Part shown: positions 3,158 to 41,887 of the stretch, piece after piece
Numbering within the stretch: the first letter of the stretch is position 1
Layout: every line of letters begins with the position of its first letter
Virus record (IMG/VR): IMGVR_UViG_3300009149_000016
Location: 32,001-96,000 of that record
Reading direction: 5' to 3' (one strand)
DNA length: 64,000 nt
Source of the DNA: a virus
Translations under genes and position numbers: made by a program
Notes under the pieces: model-generated
The model's database searches: none
What the model saw: only the letters and a program-made list of their open reading frames with translations
What the model was told of the DNA's origin: nothing

Positions 3158-3191
3158 GCCTAGCCAACCTTAGAAAAAGAACATCGATTGG

Positions 3192-3220
3192 TGGATTGGA
3201 ACCAGCCTGCCGCCTTAGAA
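3192..3220 (+). promoter_or_regulatory. Class-1 promoter-like motif (TGGATT-N17-TTAGAA)
   Basis: One of 5 copies with exact 17-nt spacing, followed by GGGGCAC. Confidence 0.6.
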
Positions 3221-3291
3221 GGGGCACAACAACGCGACTCAACGTCCCGAGTGCTAAAACGAAAGCCCGGGACGTTGCCGTTTAAGGGCTC

Positions 3292-3298
3292 GGTGTAG
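3292..3298 (+). promoter_or_regulatory. Class-2 motif GGTGTAG, 8 nt before ATG 3307
   Basis: One of 12 copies at 8-9 nt from a start codon. Confidence 0.65.
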
Positions 3299-3306
3299 AG
3301 GTTATC

Positions 3307-3528
3307 ATGGGTGTTCGAATACTCGAAGGTACGAAAATCAACGACGGACCGAATGCAGGAACCGGCGCCGTGCTGTATTGCTCGACGTCTGGCATCGCCA
3401 TGGCCCCCATGTTCACCGACGGCGTGGAAGCTCAGCGGTTCCTCGACTGGTTCAAGGATGACCCCCGTACCAATGACCATCGCACCTACCAGGAATGGCA
3501 GCGCTGGGTTCGGGAAGGGAAACCTTGA
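3307..3528 (+). CDS. Small hypothetical protein
   Basis: 73 aa ORF preceded by the class-2 motif. Confidence 0.7.
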   Translation: MGVRILEGTKINDGPNAGTGAVLYCSTSGIAMAPMFTDGVEAQRFLDWFKDDPRTNDHRTYQEWQRWVREGKP

Positions 3529-4289: not shown

Positions 4290-5245
4290 TCCTTGGGCAA
4301 AACCCAGCCACCCTCGAACATGTCGAGGATCTCAATGAACATGTCATAGGGGTTCTTCCCCTCGTGGTTCACGAGGGTGTTGAAGCCTGCCGCCGCCGTG
4401 TGACCCCCACCCCCGGGAAACATCTTGGCGAGCGCCTTACAGTCGAAACCCGTGTGGCTCCGTGTCGAGTAGATGATCTTGCGCTCACCACCCTCGACGA
4501 ACATGTTGAAGCCCACGACCAAATCGGCATCCTTGTCGATAAGCTCGGCGGCATCGCTCGACGAACGCGTTCCTTCAAACAAGACAACCTTCGTGCCCTT
4601 CTCGCTCTTGGTGCGCCACGCCTCCCGCACCTTGCGAAGGATGCTCTCGTTCCAATCATCGTCGATGAATGCTGGAAGCGTTCCATTGAGAAGGTCGATT
4701 GCCTCGGCCAGGTCGATCGACATCCAAAAGTCCCGGGGCAAACGCATGAGAGTTTGCGCCTGCTTTTTTGCCAAAAACCAATCCGGTGATTTCGTCTGCC
4801 AGGTGTCCCGGATCCCTGCAAGCTCAGCGAACCGGCTCACCTCTTGCTCGCCGACCATTTTGCCCAGACGCTTGATTCGATAGACTGACGGTTGCCAGAT
4901 GTGACGGAAAGCCAGCACGGCCCCGCTCACCCCTGGCTCTTCTTTCTCGTCGGCGTAGACCCCCCGCTCACCGAACGCCGCAACCACGTCTTTGGCACCC
5001 TTGTGGTGGTCGAGACAGAACGCGCCACCGTCGATGAATTCCTGGTACCGGCTGTGGTGGGGGGAGAAATCGACGAACGTCAGACCCTCCTGCACCACCA
5101 TATTTTCGTGCTCTGGTGTGTTGTACTGCATGAATTCGATTGGGACGCTCGGCAACGCGTCTCGCACGATCATGGCAGAGGCAATACCGTCAGGGCAGTT
5201 GGCGTGAGAAACGACCTTGGTGATCTTCTCAACTGGGATTGTCAT
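4286..5245 (-). CDS. DHH/DHHA1 family phosphoesterase (NrnB-like oligoribonuclease)
   Basis: Motifs SHANCPDG, FVDFS, LDHHK, GGGHTAAAGF; ATG 5245 overlaps the upstream TGA (ATGA). Confidence 0.85.
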   Translation of the reverse strand: MTIPVEKITKVVSHANCPDGIASAMIVRDALPSVPIEFMQYNTPEHENMVVQEGLTFVDFSPHHSRYQEFIDGGAFCLDHHKGAKDVVAAFGERGVYADEKEEPGVSGAVLAFRHIWQPSVYRIKRLGKMVGEQEVSRFAELAGIRDTWQTKSPDWFLAKKQAQTLMRLPRDFWMSIDLAEAIDLLNGTLPAFIDDDWNESILRKVREAWRTKSEKGTKVVLFEGTRSSSDAAELIDKDADLVVGFNMFVEGGERKIIYSTRSHTGFDCKALAKMFPGGGGHTAAAGFNTLVNHEGKNPYDMFIEILDMFEGGWVLPKD

Positions 5246-9484: not shown

Positions 9485-10334
9485 GGTTCAAAAGGGGAAG
9501 CCTCTTGGTGGTGTCCCGTTTGAGGGGCGAAAGGCTTTCATCGGCACTGTAGCAGTATTGGCAGCCATACGTACAGGCTTCGTTGATCGTGAAGGGCTCG
9601 ACGCAGATGGCGCATCCGCACCCTTCCTTGACGGGCTCCGTCACGGGGGCGAACATGCTGCCATCCTCGCACACGCCGTGGGTGACGTACGTCGTGAGCC
9701 CATTATGTTGGGTCGGACCCGGCAAGGGGGTCGATTCCTCTCGGCAGACCTGCATCACGATGCCGTAGCGCTTGGCAATGGCCGACAGCCGGATCATGAG
9801 CTTGGCTCGTTGCTCCGGGGACCGCTTCTCAGGCATGCGGTCATTCTCCTGCAAGAACGACACGTACACCTTGTTGACGTGCCATTCGAGCCCCTGGGCG
9901 ATCTGTTCGAACCGAGCAACCACTTGCTCATCCGGGATCATGGGTATCGGGCTGAACCGCCACACGACCCGGTCAGGACCGAGAGCGTCCGCAAGCTGGC
10001 GGGTGTGAAAGAGCACCTCCGACAGCGGGGGTACCTTCCACTCAACCTCGTGCCACCCCGTGATCGTCACATGCGCCCGCATGGAGTACCGCTGGCGGTT
10101 GAGCTTGGCCCACTTCGCAAGAGGCTCCGGGTTCTTGGTCCAGAACACGAGCCCGAGTACATCGGCGGGTTGAAGGCTCCAACGATAGGGGAAGGCACTG
10201 CGAGGATCGAAAGCCACCATGTAGCCCTGATCGATTTGTTGCTCGAACCATGCCCACTTGTCCCCCGCACAGATGTCGGTCCACCGGCTCAGACTGTAGG
10301 GTAGGTTCTCCGCTCTGCCCGTCTTCATCTCCAT
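9471..10334 (-). CDS. DUF1848 family (radical-SAM-related) protein
   Basis: SLSRWTDI, VFWTKNP, VVWRFSPI, C-terminal CGCA and CTYGCQYCY; start at ATG 10334, 9 nt after a class-2 motif. Confidence 0.8.
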   Translation of the reverse strand: MEMKTGRAENLPYSLSRWTDICAGDKWAWFEQQIDQGYMVAFDPRSAFPYRWSLQPADVLGLVFWTKNPEPLAKWAKLNRQRYSMRAHVTITGWHEVEWKVPPLSEVLFHTRQLADALGPDRVVWRFSPIPMIPDEQVVARFEQIAQGLEWHVNKVYVSFLQENDRMPEKRSPEQRAKLMIRLSAIAKRYGIVMQVCREESTPLPGPTQHNGLTTYVTHGVCEDGSMFAPVTEPVKEGCGCAICVEPFTINEACTYGCQYCYSADESLSPLKRDTTKRLPLLNHGRA

Positions 10335-10863: not shown

Positions 10864-10886
10864 TGTGAGATTCTACACCAAGTTGG

Positions 10887-10915
10887 TTGATCGAGGCCAC
10901 CCCAGCACCTTAGAA
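10887..10915 (+). promoter_or_regulatory. Class-1 promoter-like motif TTGATC-N17-TTAGAA
   Basis: Repeat copy; back-to-back with a divergent class-2 motif at 10873-10879. Confidence 0.7.
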
Positions 10916-10943
10916 GGGGCACACACCAACCCCGGAGACTGAC

Positions 10944-11456: not shown

Positions 11457-11815
11457 GCAAGCCCCTCCCCGCCAAGTGGTACGACAAGGCCCCCCGCCTC
11501 GCAACCATTGCCAAGTGGATCAACGCGAACACAACCCTACACGCATGGATCGAGGAAGGATTCTGCGACACGGACCGCAAGTACAAGGGGTCTCGAATCC
11601 GGTTCCCGGGCAAGGGTCGAACCGGCAATCACCTGTTTGTGACCACCGAAAGGGTTTCCCGCCATGCGATGACCCGGGCGGAATTCTACAAGTTCGAAGT
11701 CATCTCCCACAACGCCGCCGAAACCTACCGGTCCAATGACGAAGTGGTCACGAGCCTCGACCACTACTTGAAAAAGAACCCGAAGCGGTTGATTGCGACC
11801 AAGCCCACGCCTTAG
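11453..11815 (+). CDS. Hypothetical protein
   Basis: ATGA overlap; 120 aa. Confidence 0.75.
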   Translation: MSKPLPAKWYDKAPRLATIAKWINANTTLHAWIEEGFCDTDRKYKGSRIRFPGKGRTGNHLFVTTERVSRHAMTRAEFYKFEVISHNAAETYRSNDEVVTSLDHYLKKNPKRLIATKPTP

Positions 11816-11817
11816 AA
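11789..11817 (+). promoter_or_regulatory. Class-1 promoter-like motif TTGATT-N17-TTAGAA
   Basis: Repeat copy; ATG 8 nt downstream. Confidence 0.7.
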
Positions 11818-11825
11818 GGGGCACA

Positions 11826-28135: not shown

Positions 28136-28177
28136 GTTGTCCTCTACACCGAGTGTTCCGACCCCTGAAATGCGACA

Positions 28178-28204
28178 GCCCGTCACCAGTTGAGGGTGAC
28201 GGGC
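28178..28204 (-). terminator. 10-bp hairpin GCCCGTCACC/GGTGACGGGC, loop CTCAACT
   Basis: Perfect inverted repeat downstream of the DUF1257-like gene; no clear U-tract. Confidence 0.5.
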
Positions 28205-28244
28205 CGCAGACGGCGCACGTGTGACGTGTTCAGCCGGTGTTGTG

Positions 28245-38529: not shown

Positions 38530-38547
38530 CCTTCTTACCTACACTGG

Positions 38548-38576
38548 TTGATTGGCTTGGGCACCATGTCTTATGG
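38548..38576 (+). promoter_or_regulatory. Class-1 promoter-like motif TTGATT-N17-TTATGG
   Basis: Repeat copy; ATG 5 nt downstream; back-to-back with a divergent class-2 motif at 38539-38545. Confidence 0.65.
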
Positions 38577-38581
38577 GGTGC

Positions 38582-38836
38582 ATGGAGCCTTTCAACGTTA
38601 CGACCGAGACCACCCACCACCGACTAACTGCCGTGGTCATCCGTGAGGAGAACAGCGGACGTCGTTGGCGAAGCAACCGTGCGTTTGGCTCGGAGATGAG
38701 CGCCACCCGTTTCGCTATCGAACAGGTGGTTCCGGCGCTTCAAAAAGGTGCTCACCCGGGCACATCCACCAAGTGGACGGAGATCGAGCCGGTTCACCAG
38801 AGCCCGGCCTGGTACCTGCAACAGCGGGCAGGCTAA
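38582..38836 (+). CDS. Small hypothetical protein
   Basis: ATG 38582 directly after the class-1 motif. Confidence 0.65.
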   Translation: MEPFNVTTETTHHRLTAVVIREENSGRRWRSNRAFGSEMSATRFAIEQVVPALQKGAHPGTSTKWTEIEPVHQSPAWYLQQRAG

Positions 38837-39234
38837 GCCTGCTTGCCTCCGTGGCGAAAGGATCGCGTCTGATTGTACGCATCCTTGACCGCCACCGCCT
38901 TGCCGATGTCCACCCCGTAGAAGCCCGCCATATCGAGCGCTCGGATGATCACGTCGGCAAGCTCTTCCTCGAAATACGTGAGCGGCTCTAGCCCCAGCGC
39001 TTTCATCTCTTCAGCCTTGTCGCAGGGCTCGTTGAGGAGACCCTTTCGATAGGCGGTCCAGATCTCAGCCACCTCTTCGTGAAGGTTGGACGTGTAACGA
39101 CCGACCCCCTGGGCTTCCAACTCTGGGTCGTGGAAGCCTTTTGCGGTGTGGATCTTGAGGATGTGGTCGCCGAGCGTGTTGAGGATGACCAAATCGAGCG
39201 GCTGGTACTGCTTGTATGGAGTCTGGTCAGACAT
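38833..39234 (-). CDS. MazG-like nucleotide pyrophosphohydrolase
   Basis: LHEEVAE...EEELADVIIR...K..YN.TR..RHGGK. Confidence 0.85.
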   Translation of the reverse strand: MSDQTPYKQYQPLDLVILNTLGDHILKIHTAKGFHDPELEAQGVGRYTSNLHEEVAEIWTAYRKGLLNEPCDKAEEMKALGLEPLTYFEEELADVIIRALDMAGFYGVDIGKAVAVKDAYNQTRSFRHGGKQA

Positions 39235-39460
39235 GCCCGGATCTTACACCCTTGAAGGGTATGAATCGAGCAAGACGACGGCCTTCAGGCCAATCGACGA
39301 TCTCATTCCACATCTCAAGCGGACGGATCCACGTGCCCTCTTGGTCCATGTTGACGTAGACCACCATCTTGGACTGGTCCTCCGAGTGTTTCCCCACCGC
39401 AATGACCTGGTACAGACCGCCCTTGAAGTGTCGGTAGAGTTTGCCAACTTTCGGTTGCAT
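39227..39460 (-). CDS. DUF1653 family protein
   Basis: YRHFKGGLYQV...HSE...VVY...WIRPLEM...RF; second ATG (39460) fits class-2 spacing. Confidence 0.85.
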   Translation of the reverse strand: MQPKVGKLYRHFKGGLYQVIAVGKHSEDQSKMVVYVNMDQEGTWIRPLEMWNEIVDWPEGRRLARFIPFKGVRSGHV

Positions 39461-39489
39461 GCTCATACCCTACACCCCTTAAATTAGTT

Positions 39490-39580
39490 GGGCCCTGGTT
39501 GAGTTGTCAGGGCCCGAATATAGGCACAGTTGAGTTGTCGCGCCTACTAGAGCGGCCATAGTTGAGTTGTCATGCCCGCT
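39490..39580 (-). ncRNA. Array of three stem-loops with identical 10-nt loop ACAACUCAAC (putative structured RNA or ssDNA element)
   Basis: Stems 39490-97/39508-15, 39521-28/39539-46 and 39551-60/39571-80 differ in sequence but pair; G-U pairs form only on the minus strand. Confidence 0.65.
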
Positions 39581-39614
39581 ACAAGAATCAAAGTATCGTT
39601 CGGGGAGCGAATTG

Positions 39615-40907
39615 TCAAGTGGGTTCCAAGCAGATCGTGACATTCGCATGGCGGCGAGACACGTTGAACTTGCGCTGGAAGGGCTCGGATCGAACGCCTG
39701 TGGACGAATCGAGCGCGTACATCTGCACCCTGCTTGCAATCTCAGAGGAATCCAGGTTGAGTCCAGCCCCCTTGGTGACTTCCAGAGATACGTGAATGTT
39801 GTGCGGACCGTCCACGTTATCCCAAGCATCCCAGCCCACAGAGGAGATCGACTTGCGCCGGGAAGGAATTCCCCGTGTGCCGACGTACTCCCCGATCACC
39901 CGAATCGAACCGCCTTGGTCAACACCGATCCCGAAGTGGTCGATCCCGTAGGGCTTCAGGTAGAATGCGTAGAAGGTGTCGGGGCCAGCAACGCGTGTGA
40001 GGGGGTAAACAACCAGTCCCTCACGGTGCTGGTTGAAGTATCGACCGCCTCGAAGGTCTGCCATGGTTTCGAGAGTCCTGACGGTCGGAGACGGTAGTCC
40101 TTGAAGCCCGAAGAACCGAGGCGTTCCGACTTGGAAGGTATCGCCGACGCCCGTTGCGGCGTAGTTGGCGGTTCCTGTGTTGTACGCCTGGCGTTGAGTC
40201 GAACCCGAGATCACGTAGGACCCCACCTTGGGTTGATGGTAGAGGTTCTTTTTGGTGTGAGACCAGATAAGGCATGAACTGTTCAAGGGGGCCACAGGTG
40301 TGACGATTGAGTGAAATGCGTTCATGAAGTCACGACCGGGCTCCGTGAAGGCATCGGTCCAATGACCGCCACCGCCTTCAAACGCAGTATCGATTCCACA
40401 CGTTGGCGGAAGCCCACTACGATAACGCCGGTTGTAGGAGCCGCCCCCTCGCATGCTGCTGTACATCCGGTTGTGGCAAGAGACCCGAACTTGGTTCATG
40501 TCGGGGTCGAACACCTCGAAGACCCGAACCACAGCTTGGTCATCGAAAAAACCGCCGCTCGACGCCGTGTTGGCCCAAACATAGGAGATCACCTCAGCAA
40601 TCGTGCCTTGTGCTTGATAGTGTTTCGTCCCGGTGCCGCCTGGAAAGTCGATCTCGAAGAACGCACCTTGCAAAGTGTCGTCCCACTGCTGTGCCGTGTG
40701 GCCCGGGGTGACTGCATTTGCGCTCACGGTGATTGGACGCGTTCGCAAGTAAAACGTGATTTGGTCCGTCTGCCGCAAGTACCAGCGAGGACGACGGGTC
40801 CATGTCTGAGTCACGTTGTCCCACTGCCAAATCGTGCGCTCAGCGTCGACGTAAACTTGACGGGGCGATGTCGGGATTGGCTTTGTGACGGTGTTCCACT
40901 CAAACAT
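39615..40907 (-). CDS. Putative tail-associated protein
   Basis: 430 aa, beta/Gly/Thr-rich; AAGGA RBS; end of the structural block. Confidence 0.65.
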   Translation of the reverse strand: MFEWNTVTKPIPTSPRQVYVDAERTIWQWDNVTQTWTRRPRWYLRQTDQITFYLRTRPITVSANAVTPGHTAQQWDDTLQGAFFEIDFPGGTGTKHYQAQGTIAEVISYVWANTASSGGFFDDQAVVRVFEVFDPDMNQVRVSCHNRMYSSMRGGGSYNRRYRSGLPPTCGIDTAFEGGGGHWTDAFTEPGRDFMNAFHSIVTPVAPLNSSCLIWSHTKKNLYHQPKVGSYVISGSTQRQAYNTGTANYAATGVGDTFQVGTPRFFGLQGLPSPTVRTLETMADLRGGRYFNQHREGLVVYPLTRVAGPDTFYAFYLKPYGIDHFGIGVDQGGSIRVIGEYVGTRGIPSRRKSISSVGWDAWDNVDGPHNIHVSLEVTKGAGLNLDSSEIASRVQMYALDSSTGVRSEPFQRKFNVSRRHANVTICLEPT

Positions 40908-40952
40908 GATGTGTCCTTAGTTGCAGGTATCGGACTGCACTCCGCTGGTCAA

Positions 40953-41537
40953 TTAGAAGGCGAACCAGAGCCCAAAGTGAGGGTTGTGTGTCCAGGATGC
41001 CCAAGCCAGTGCATAGCCTGCGTGCGCCCCGAAGTTCTTGGTGACATCGACCCCAAAGCTCAAGCCTGTCGACCTGATCCCGACGTTGGCGTTGAGGTTG
41101 GCCCACTGCCAATGGAAGAAATCGAGCATGGCAGAGATCTCAAGACCCTCACGCAAGTCCTTGGCGTTCCACGCCTCGACCGCCAAAAGCCCCATCGCCG
41201 CCTTGGGTCGCAGCCGAAAGCCCCACGTTGAAGGCTCGACCATCCCCACCACGACATCGATCTTGCCCGCAGCGTCGGCTTCGTACGTGCACCACTGCAT
41301 CCGCAGCTTGTATGGATGAGGCTGGGCGCCCGAGTAGAAGATGCGTCCCTCACGATCACGGATGATGGTGATCGGATCCAACTCGAAAGTCGGGTCCTGG
41401 GTCTGCAAGCACTTCTTTTCCTTCAGAAGCTCGACGAACACGTTCATGTCCGGCTCTGGGACACAGGTTCCGTCAGGGCATTCTTGCGCCGCAGCGAGCG
41501 ACGGAAGGAAAACGAGCGCTAGGGGGGCCCACCGCAT
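40953..41537 (-). CDS. Exported protein with beta-barrel-like C-terminus
   Basis: Signal peptide MRWAPLALVFLPSLAAA|Q; amphipathic strands ending FGLWFAF. Confidence 0.7.
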   Translation of the reverse strand: MRWAPLALVFLPSLAAAQECPDGTCVPEPDMNVFVELLKEKKCLQTQDPTFELDPITIIRDREGRIFYSGAQPHPYKLRMQWCTYEADAAGKIDVVVGMVEPSTWGFRLRPKAAMGLLAVEAWNAKDLREGLEISAMLDFFHWQWANLNANVGIRSTGLSFGVDVTKNFGAHAGYALAWASWTHNPHFGLWFAF

Positions 41538-41887
41538 CACTTCTCCCGATAGTAGGAGTAGACCTTGGGGGCGTTCTTCGACTTGTAGGCGTCCAACTTG
41601 GTCTTGAGCGCCGTCCACAAGCGAGGGTCGGACCCAAGATGGTTGGAGATGAGCCGGTAGCGTCCCCAGTTCGTGATCAGTTCTTCCAACTTGAACGGAA
41701 GCTTTTCCAATGCACCAAGGGACTTGAGCCATGGCATCAAGATGTGGTTTCGCCCAAAAACCAAAGCGATCTGCTCAATCGCAACGACAACGTCACCTCG
41801 GTGAGGCACCGTCACTCTGTCTTTCAACAGTTGCTGGGCTTCCATCTTGACGTCGACGGGGAGCTTGAGATCTGCTGTCGGATTCAT
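41537..41887 (-). CDS. Hypothetical protein ending VYSYYREK
   Basis: 116 aa, coupled both sides. Confidence 0.65.
   Translation of the reverse strand: MNPTADLKLPVDVKMEAQQLLKDRVTVPHRGDVVVAIEQIALVFGRNHILMPWLKSLGALEKLPFKLEELITNWGRYRLISNHLGSDPRLWTALKTKLDAYKSKNAPKVYSYYREK

Follow-up and report, generated by a model that had tools for sequence, protein, structure and literature searches.

Three tandem hairpins with an invariant loop and covarying stems in an uncultured jumbo phage: a candidate factor-read terminator

A hairpin triplet with a fixed loop and compensating stems

The subject of this report is a 64,000-nt stretch of DNA (the window) from the 107,136-base virus record IMGVR_UViG_3300009149_000016, which is estimated to hold about 23% of the genome of its phage, and within it an array of three stem-loops on the minus strand (39580-39490; all coordinates are window positions) whose loops all read ACAACUCAAC and whose stems all differ. 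The array is a real, strongly structured and sequence-constrained RNA hairpin triplet. Our preferred interpretation, to which we assign a tentative probability of about 0.4, is that it acts as a terminator or attenuator RNA, read by a factor, at a junction between a terminator and a promoter.

The hairpins follow one another on the minus strand with start-to-start spacings of 32 and 31 nt. Hairpin 1 (HP1, 39551-39580, AGCGGGCAUG-ACAACUCAAC-UAUGGCCGCU) has a stem of 5 + 4 bp with one G.G mismatch and a closing G.U pair, and its loop lies at 39561-39570. Hairpin 2 (HP2, 39520-39547, (G)UAGGCGCG-ACAACUCAAC-UGUGCCUA(U)) has a 9-bp stem that includes G.U pairs and a loop at 39529-39538, and hairpin 3 (HP3, 39490-39515, GGGCCCUG-ACAACUCAAC-CAGGGCCC) has a perfect, G+C-rich stem of 8 bp and a loop at 39498-39507. 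The loop is 10 nt long and G-free. The linkers between the hairpins, CUAG and UAUUC, are not conserved, and the tails that follow the three stems are CUAGUAGG, UAUAUUCG and AACUAAUUU. A first-pass annotation of this DNA had quoted these sequences and described three tandem hairpins with the same loop, exactly as we find them; its further statement that all of the stems pair needs a small correction for the internal mismatch of HP1.

In an alignment of the three units, 23 of the 24 stem cells are paired (95.8%), with double-sided changes at five of the eight stem positions; only 2 of 500 column shuffles reach an equal score, and sliding the partner columns by 1 to 3 positions leaves at most 56% of the cells paired. 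The covariation of the stems that had been claimed at first reading is therefore borne out. All 30 of the 30 pairwise loop positions are identical, while the 11-nt flanks agree at 30 of 66 (45%, against 26% by chance), and had the loops drifted as the flanks did, their identity would have a probability of about 1e-7. Because pairing has been kept through compensatory changes, and because loops and flanks differ so strongly in identity, we conclude that the stems were kept as structure and the loop as sequence. The invariance of the loops would also argue for sequence-specific binding, in line with the multivalent recognition suggested at the outset. The 10-mer ACAACUCAAC has three copies in the window and no further ones in the rest of the record, every copy being in the array and on the minus strand, and ACAACTCAAC likewise has exactly three copies in the record, all in the array. 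A detector of tandem hairpins with the same loop and different stems returned the array as its sole site in the 107 kb record.

The structure prefers one strand. Folded as RNA over 141 nt, the minus strand reaches -48.3 kcal/mol (z -3.5, with 0 of 200 shuffles as good), whereas the plus strand is no better than its shuffles (z +0.1). The energies of HP1, HP2 and HP3 are -11.7, -11.3 and -17.3 kcal/mol on the minus strand, where HP3 has a z of -4.6, and -8.8, -5.8 and -19.1 kcal/mol on the plus strand. HP1 and HP2 rest on three G.U pairs, which turn into A.C mismatches on the plus strand, while HP3 is symmetric, so that the earlier remark that the wobble pairs work on the minus strand only describes HP1 and HP2, which fold well only there, but not HP3. 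With DNA folding parameters the hairpins form on both strands, the minus strand still being the better one. Since every neighbouring gene lies on the minus strand, the favoured strand is that of the sense RNA. We discounted a long-range closing helix in the 141-nt fold, which occupies the -10 region of the promoter described below.

A terminator slot ahead of the GGTGTAG start signal

An alignment of the SNF2 helicase encoded downstream of the array yielded 37 related loci (L078-L114), many of them on contigs of 250 to 450 kb and several complete with terminal repeats, and they therefore represent a clade of uncultured jumbo phages. The relatives named individually below are G001, the closest one, which has about 25 genes in common with the present record (G000) in the same order, and G020, which is complete at 407 kb.

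The array is followed on the minus strand by the start-associated signal GGTGTAG (39470-39476), 9 nt before the ATG at 39460 of a DUF1653 gene; this is the signal that the first-pass annotation had called a class-2 motif. About 18 copies of GGTGTAG stand 8-9 nt before start codons in the record, on both strands, and in the relatives GGTGTA(N) precedes the orthologous SNF2 and AAA-ATPase genes at 8-48 nt; in L078-L114 it is found around positions 9950-10000. The boundary before the AAA-ATPase gene is the most instructive one: in 22 of 29 relatives it carries an 11-24-bp hairpin with a T-tract, that is, a canonical terminator, followed about 5-15 nt on by GGTGTA(N) and, 8-48 nt further, by the start codon. 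From this layout we take the hairpin with its U-tract to be an intrinsic terminator and GGTGTA to be a promoter-type signal, whose placement suits a promoter element of mRNAs with a short leader or none. The loops of these terminators are unrelated to one another and 3-12 nt long, mostly 3-7. Throughout the clade, the 6-mers most enriched ahead of the start-associated GGTGTA are T-runs and the inverse motif TACACC, and the presence of TACACC there points to putative back-to-back divergent signals. Canonical intrinsic terminators, which the relatives use regularly ahead of GGTGTA, are scarce in the present phage, with 5 candidates in 107 kb.

The box UUUAAGGG (39476-39483, minus strand) separates the last hairpin from the start signal and may be a degenerate U-tract, a Shine-Dalgarno-like AAGGGG placed 8 nt before the first DUF1653 ATG, or both. 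The composite of TTT[AC]AGGG and, within 16 nt, GTGTAG has exactly three copies in the 107 kb, each time directly after one or more strong hairpins, namely at the array and at two modules that we call M1 and M2; it has zero occurrences in G001 and G020. M2 (28144-28207, minus strand) consists of a 13-bp hairpin (28175-28207) with the loop CUCAACU, followed by CGCAUUUCAGGGG, GGUGUAG (28144-28150) and the ATG of the AAA-ATPase gene. It occupies the site orthologous to the AAA-ATPase terminators of the relatives, with CGCAUUUCAGGGG as a degenerate tail. M1 (3188-3309, plus strand) lies in a divergent intergenic region and comprises a TTGGAT-17-TTAGAAGGGGCAC promoter, the 15-nt single-stranded segment ACAACGCGACUCAAC, a 12-bp hairpin (3240-3277) and UUUAAGGGCUCGGUGUAG before the ATG of a 73-aa gene; after its hairpin come UUUAAGGG, GGUGUAG (3292-3298) and the ATG. 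The leaders of M1, M2 and the array align with each other. Because all three have the composite in common, the array falls in the terminator slot of the phage's own terminator-promoter junction.

A predicted sigma-70-like promoter, TTGACA-17 nt-TACTTT (39590-39618, minus strand), stands directly before the array and overlaps the TGA stop of the upstream gene, which encodes a 430-aa protein. It is the single match to TTGAC[AT]-N16-18-TAnnnT when both strands of the 107 kb record are scanned, and its predicted transcription start lies about 2-5 nt before HP1; it fails a stricter consensus scan, its -10 box matching at 3 of 6 positions. Since the array and M1 have the same layout, two of the three modules have a promoter that would fire straight into the hairpin or hairpins. 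A promoter directly ahead of a hairpin is the layout of attenuators, small RNAs and antitermination-controlled operons such as lambda pR'-tR', and antitermination control classically acts on terminators close to a promoter.

A few further elements of the record resemble parts of these modules. Three near-identical plus-strand promoter-like elements, at 3188-3228, 10883-10923 and 11785-11825, the M1 promoter being one of them, have a (G)TTGAT-type box, a 17-nt spacing and TTAGAAGGGGCACA; at one of them the A that follows CAC is the A of the ATG, and a leaderless mRNA would be expected there. The plus strand also has a 10-bp hairpin with G.U pairs at 5218-5244 whose loop is CUCAACU, as in M2. 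Matches in G020 and G001 had raised the idea of a CUCAAC loop signal common to the clade, which we rejected, CTCAAC being enriched neither in hairpin loops nor, in the relatives, upstream of GGTGTA.

A proposed terminator or attenuator read by a factor

We propose that the hairpins, as they emerge in the growing RNA, would halt or attenuate polymerases that come from the late-gene block upstream, of which the 430-aa gene is part, as well as those starting at the adjacent sigma-70-like promoter. The three invariant loops would then offer multivalent docking to a trans-acting factor, probably a protein rather than an RNA, which would set the balance between termination and read-through into DUF1653, MazG, SNF2 and the replication genes. 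The hairpins have the G+C-rich stems (8-10 bp, -11 to -17 kcal/mol) of a terminator and lie where one is expected, between the stop codon of the 430-aa gene and GGTGTAG. We infer a reader because large, invariant, G-free loops are needless for plain termination and even unfavourable to it. As loops of 10 nt are poor for termination, and those of the relatives' terminators are unrelated, the constraint on the loop points to recognition. CUCAAC is found in all three modules of the present phage (3 observed against 0.9 expected, p about 0.06), which is a hint only.

Several findings weigh against this interpretation. The loops are longer than the roughly 3-8 nt of terminator hairpins, no U-tract directly follows any of the three stems, the sole UUU lying 7-9 nt after HP3, and a terminator scan called none at the array. 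Strong hairpins stand ahead of only 3 of the 18 GGTGTAG starts, and the present phage might use GGTGTAG as a signal for translation, in which case the array would simply be a 5' leader. CUCAAC near GGTGTA is weakly enriched in the present phage and not at all in the relatives (6 observed against 7.5 expected). The element is conserved in no relative or collection searched (for the metagenome and cellular scans, among the matches listed), and the 107 kb revealed no RNA-binding partner, Nop, Hfq and ProQ being absent.

The nearest likeness to the array is found in the intrinsic terminators of its own clade, which occupy the same slot, after a gene end and before the start signal, and have G+C-rich stems; at the site of M2, canonical terminators replace the single hairpin in the 22 relatives mentioned above. 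The array differs from them in being triplicated, in its invariant 10-nt loops and in lacking a proper U-tract. The lambdoid systems nut/boxB-N, HK022 put and pR'-tR'-Q resemble it in that hairpins follow a promoter ahead of a long operon and a sequence-specific loop is read by a factor that alters read-through, as we propose for the array. BoxB, which adjoins boxA, has one stem of 5 bp and a GNRA-like pentaloop, and put consists of two larger stem-loops. The array, with stems of 8-10 bp and 10-nt loops of ACAACUCAAC, has no sequence or Rfam similarity to such antitermination sites, and we identified neither a boxA nor an N-, Q- or Nun-like protein in the record, small N-like proteins being without a reliable profile. 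The first-pass annotation had offered an antitermination or termination element of the boxB type; the comparative data agree with the general part of that idea, since the array sits in a terminator slot, but not with the boxB form, for which the short stem and the pentaloop are missing. Overall, the array is best taken as a specialised and probably factor-controlled stop signal at a terminator-promoter junction within a lineage-specific cassette.

A more specific version, possible but on balance unlikely in our estimate, is that the hairpins are sequence-tagged stop signals whose three ACAACUCAAC loops are bound cooperatively by a dedicated phage factor that switches between termination and read-through at module boundaries. 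If so, array and factor would make up a new regulatory pair of RNA and protein, in a lineage of jumbo phages with its own GGTGTA-type start signals, and the single sites M1 and M2 would be further targets of the factor. A factor that reads the loop would also make the array a compact and portable RNA switch for the control of read-through, and would offer a handle on how these phages separate late from replication genes. Gene expression in uncultured jumbo phages is almost unknown, and the triple hairpin now has a place in a terminator-then-promoter grammar (hairpin and U-tract, then GGTGTA) that is common to at least 37 related giant phages, with one lineage in which an anonymous terminator loop is replaced by a constrained 10-nt sequence, three times over. 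Should there be no such factor, the array would be a clean natural case of stems that evolve by compensation around a frozen loop.

Alternative explanations

The alternative that survives best, though we hold it to be unlikely, is a stand-alone small RNA of about 105 nt that would begin at TTGACA-17-TACTTT and end at HP3 with AACUAAUUU, and would serve as a multivalent decoy or sponge or present three seed loops to GUUGAG targets. It would account for the promoter directly upstream, unique in the record, and for the strong constraint on the loop sequence; the GGTGTAG after the array could drive the downstream gene independently; and M1 looks like a small RNA gene in itself, with its promoter, 15 single-stranded nucleotides and a hairpin followed by UUU. 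Under the pairing model, a complementary RNA partner containing GUUGAGUUGU would be expected. The sense strands of the 107 kb, however, have no site complementary to the loop over 8 nt or more, the terminator after HP3 is weak, and the loops have no known protein-binding motif. The array has no homologue elsewhere and, among the matches listed, no cellular look-alike that it could mimic. CsrB and RsmZ, and the C-rich loops of RNAIII and RsaE of Staphylococcus, are known multi-hairpin sponge or seed RNAs. They resemble the array in repeating one short single-stranded motif in several hairpin loops, but their motifs are GGA (CsrB/RsmZ) and UCCC (RNAIII/RsaE) where the array has ACAACUCAAC. A CsrB-like sponge in the strict sense, which the first-pass annotation had put forward, does not fit loops that have no GGA and no G at all.

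Somewhat less probable still is an operator in the 5' leader of the DUF1653-MazG mRNA, in which a protein on the loops would repress or activate translation, as at the MS2 and PP7 coat-protein operators or the T4 gene 43 operator, or in which a 5'-terminal hairpin would stabilise the mRNA. The array does have a promoter-like site on one side and the first cassette gene on the other, with HP1 2-5 nt from the predicted 5' end and the AAGGGG noted above 8 nt before the first ATG. The hairpins, however, are clear of the ribosome-binding region and of the start codon, which lie 14-30 nt downstream, and neither DUF1653 nor MazG has a known RNA-binding activity. Moreover, GGTGTA behaves as a promoter in the relatives, and the array would therefore lie upstream of the start of the DUF1653 mRNA.

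We regard as improbable a role in DNA replication, in which the array, within a bidirectional origin or close to one, would provide phased binding sites, or single-stranded DNA hairpins on which a primase, helicase or initiator is loaded. Such an origin had been raised at first reading together with a check of GC skew. The cumulative GC-skew minimum of the record (70-75 kb in the genome, 38-43 kb in the window) brackets the array, and the global skew minimum of G020 (250-270 kb) brackets the same junction, between the gene for a 259-aa protein (p259) and SNF2, with gene direction unchanged in both; this junction may be a replication origin zone. The G020 curve, however, has several extrema and may follow gene modules. 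The 31-32 bp period, the helicase, primase and polymerase genes just downstream, and the formation of hairpins on both strands as DNA are also in keeping with an origin. Iterons, on the other hand, keep the arms that contact protein, whereas here the arms vary and covary, and the G.U or G.T pairs favour one strand; both points speak against the pure phased iterons that were also suggested. The repeats are indeed phased, but no AT-rich unwinding element stands out (the gap ranks near the 98.5th percentile and is no outlier), the junction is 37-200 nt long in many relatives and has no repeats there, and the array lies within a lineage-specific insertion. The skew minimum thus lends the origin idea weak support, and no other hallmark of an origin was found.

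An equally small chance goes to a plain, constitutive tandem terminator, or a 3'-end protector of the 430-aa transcript, with loops that are identical as a relic of duplication or gene conversion. The position of the array in a terminator slot agrees with this, and the identity of the flanks, at 45% against 26% by chance, fits an origin by duplication. What a relic does not explain is that 20 loop positions remained unchanged while the arms diverged to 45% identity with compensation (P about 1e-7); 10-nt loops also weaken hairpins, and the U-tracts are missing.

A guide-RNA array of the TIGR or CRISPR type, or a set of N4-type single-stranded DNA hairpin promoters, is highly improbable: the array does bear a superficial likeness to TIGR, in that a short loop repeat is conserved between variable segments of about 8-10 nt and recurs every 31-32 nt, but it has no conserved edge repeat, its variable segments are mutually complementary and UG...CCA boxes are not kept, while an N4-type promoter would have a 3-nt loop on a 5-7-bp stem in the template strand, and here the loop has 10 nt and the coding, non-template strand folds better. 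TIGR units are 36 nt long, occur in phages and alternate conserved edge and loop repeats around 9-nt spacers A and B, which are not complementary to each other, with UG...CCA boxes, and their arrays adjoin a Tas protein with a Nop domain (PMC12045711). What the array shares with TIGR is a series of tandem units of about 30-36 nt, each with two short variable stretches around a short conserved repeat, and the phage setting; it has no edge repeat and no C/D boxes, and its would-be spacers pair with each other. A search of the 107 kb for the Nop domain (PF01798) gave no match, and the 430-aa protein next to the array is beta-rich. In the literature we found no described element with the anatomy of the array other than TIGR, from which the lack of edge repeats and boxes and the pairing of its arms set it apart. 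CRISPR arrays have identical repeats of at least 23 nt and spacers that are not self-complementary; that the array is not a CRISPR was already argued at first reading and agrees with its 10-11-nt conserved core and complementary variable arms. The N4-type promoter suggested in the same place is further opposed by the lack of a virion RNA polymerase signature, no RNA polymerase catalytic motif being present in the open reading frames (ORFs) of this incomplete fragment. Type III toxin-antitoxin repeats (ToxI-like) are nearly identical over their full length and adjoin a gene for an endoribonuclease toxin; those of the array are identical over a core of 10-11 nt only, and PADLOC gave no match among the neighbouring genes.

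Searches for other copies and for a partner

No Rfam family reached its gathering score in the 64 kb window, and a permissive local Rfam scan produced only a chance-level match of 17.8 bits to a flavivirus stem-loop. We scanned sequence collections for pairs of the exact motif and rejected the loci obtained: the 68 on viral contigs were unrelated tandem repeats that do not have the hairpin architecture, and the same was true of all the matches listed from at least 119 metagenome loci and from at least 120 loci in cellular genomes. When the 37 relatives' whole records were searched with a covariance model of the unit, as the first-pass annotation had proposed, isolated matches of at most 23 bits came up and no array, and the detector of hairpin pairs with the same loop and different stems found nothing comparable in G001, G020 or the 37 related loci. 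Since no conserved copy was found, there is no cross-species covariation and no conserved context to draw upon. The flanking proteins were uninformative as to a partner, with no Pfam, PHROG, NCBIfam, PADLOC or informative PDB match that would supply one. A tRNA search of the window found none, and blastn against deposited phages gave zero matches.

Neighbouring genes and the inserted cassette

The first gene after the array is the DUF1653 gene (39227-39460, minus strand; Pfam PF07866, E 8e-20), for which the gene caller used the second ATG, giving 77 aa. The second gene of the inserted cassette encodes a MazG-like nucleotide pyrophosphatase (38833-39234, minus strand; PHROG 3301, E 1e-18). Past these two, the downstream genes encode the SNF2 helicase, a DnaB-like helicase and a family-A DNA polymerase, and a primase gene also lies downstream. 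Upstream of the array is the gene for the 430-aa protein (39615-40907, minus strand), which is without a family assignment, and before it come p259 (40953-41732) and large virion-type genes.

The 430-aa protein has no match in Pfam, PHROG, NCBIfam or PADLOC, and scans of viral and metagenome collections found no relatives of it; its own family counts about 50 clusters. The AF2 model (pLDDT 87, pTM 0.84) is beta-rich, with an Ig/FN3-like part, and against the PDB it gives only generic beta-sandwich (Ig/FN3-like) matches with Z up to 5.8. Judging from the model, the protein is probably virion-type, and its fold may be undescribed.

In most relatives SNF2 is directly preceded, across a gap of 37-200 nt, by a homologue of the 259-aa gene, and the others have unrelated inserts of 0.5-8 kb. 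The 430-aa gene, DUF1653 and MazG are absent within 10 kb of the SNF2 junction in all 37 related loci. Since the 259-aa gene adjoins SNF2 in most relatives, the 430-aa gene, the array, DUF1653 and MazG together form a lineage-specific insertion, and by this comparison of gene orders, which covered positions 1-10000 of L078-L114, the interval between the 259-aa gene and SNF2 (38530-40952) is a putative insertion hotspot or variable spot. The array had at first been placed at a junction between structural and replication genes; judged against the 37 related jumbo phages, that junction is not conserved, and the array lies inside the insertion.

The nearest deposited relatives of the SNF2 protein, at 31-39%, are those of an uncultured 485 kb phage and an Acidobacteria phage. 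In five of the related loci (L099, L105, L107, L108 and L112) SNF2 has a long N-terminal extension, in ORFs of 964-1410 aa. The AAA-ATPase homologue of G001 (65201-68074 in the record of G001) is matched in two pieces, residues 3-333 and 332-510, with about 1.35 kb between them, which suggests that something may intervene there, for example an intein or an intron carrying a homing endonuclease.

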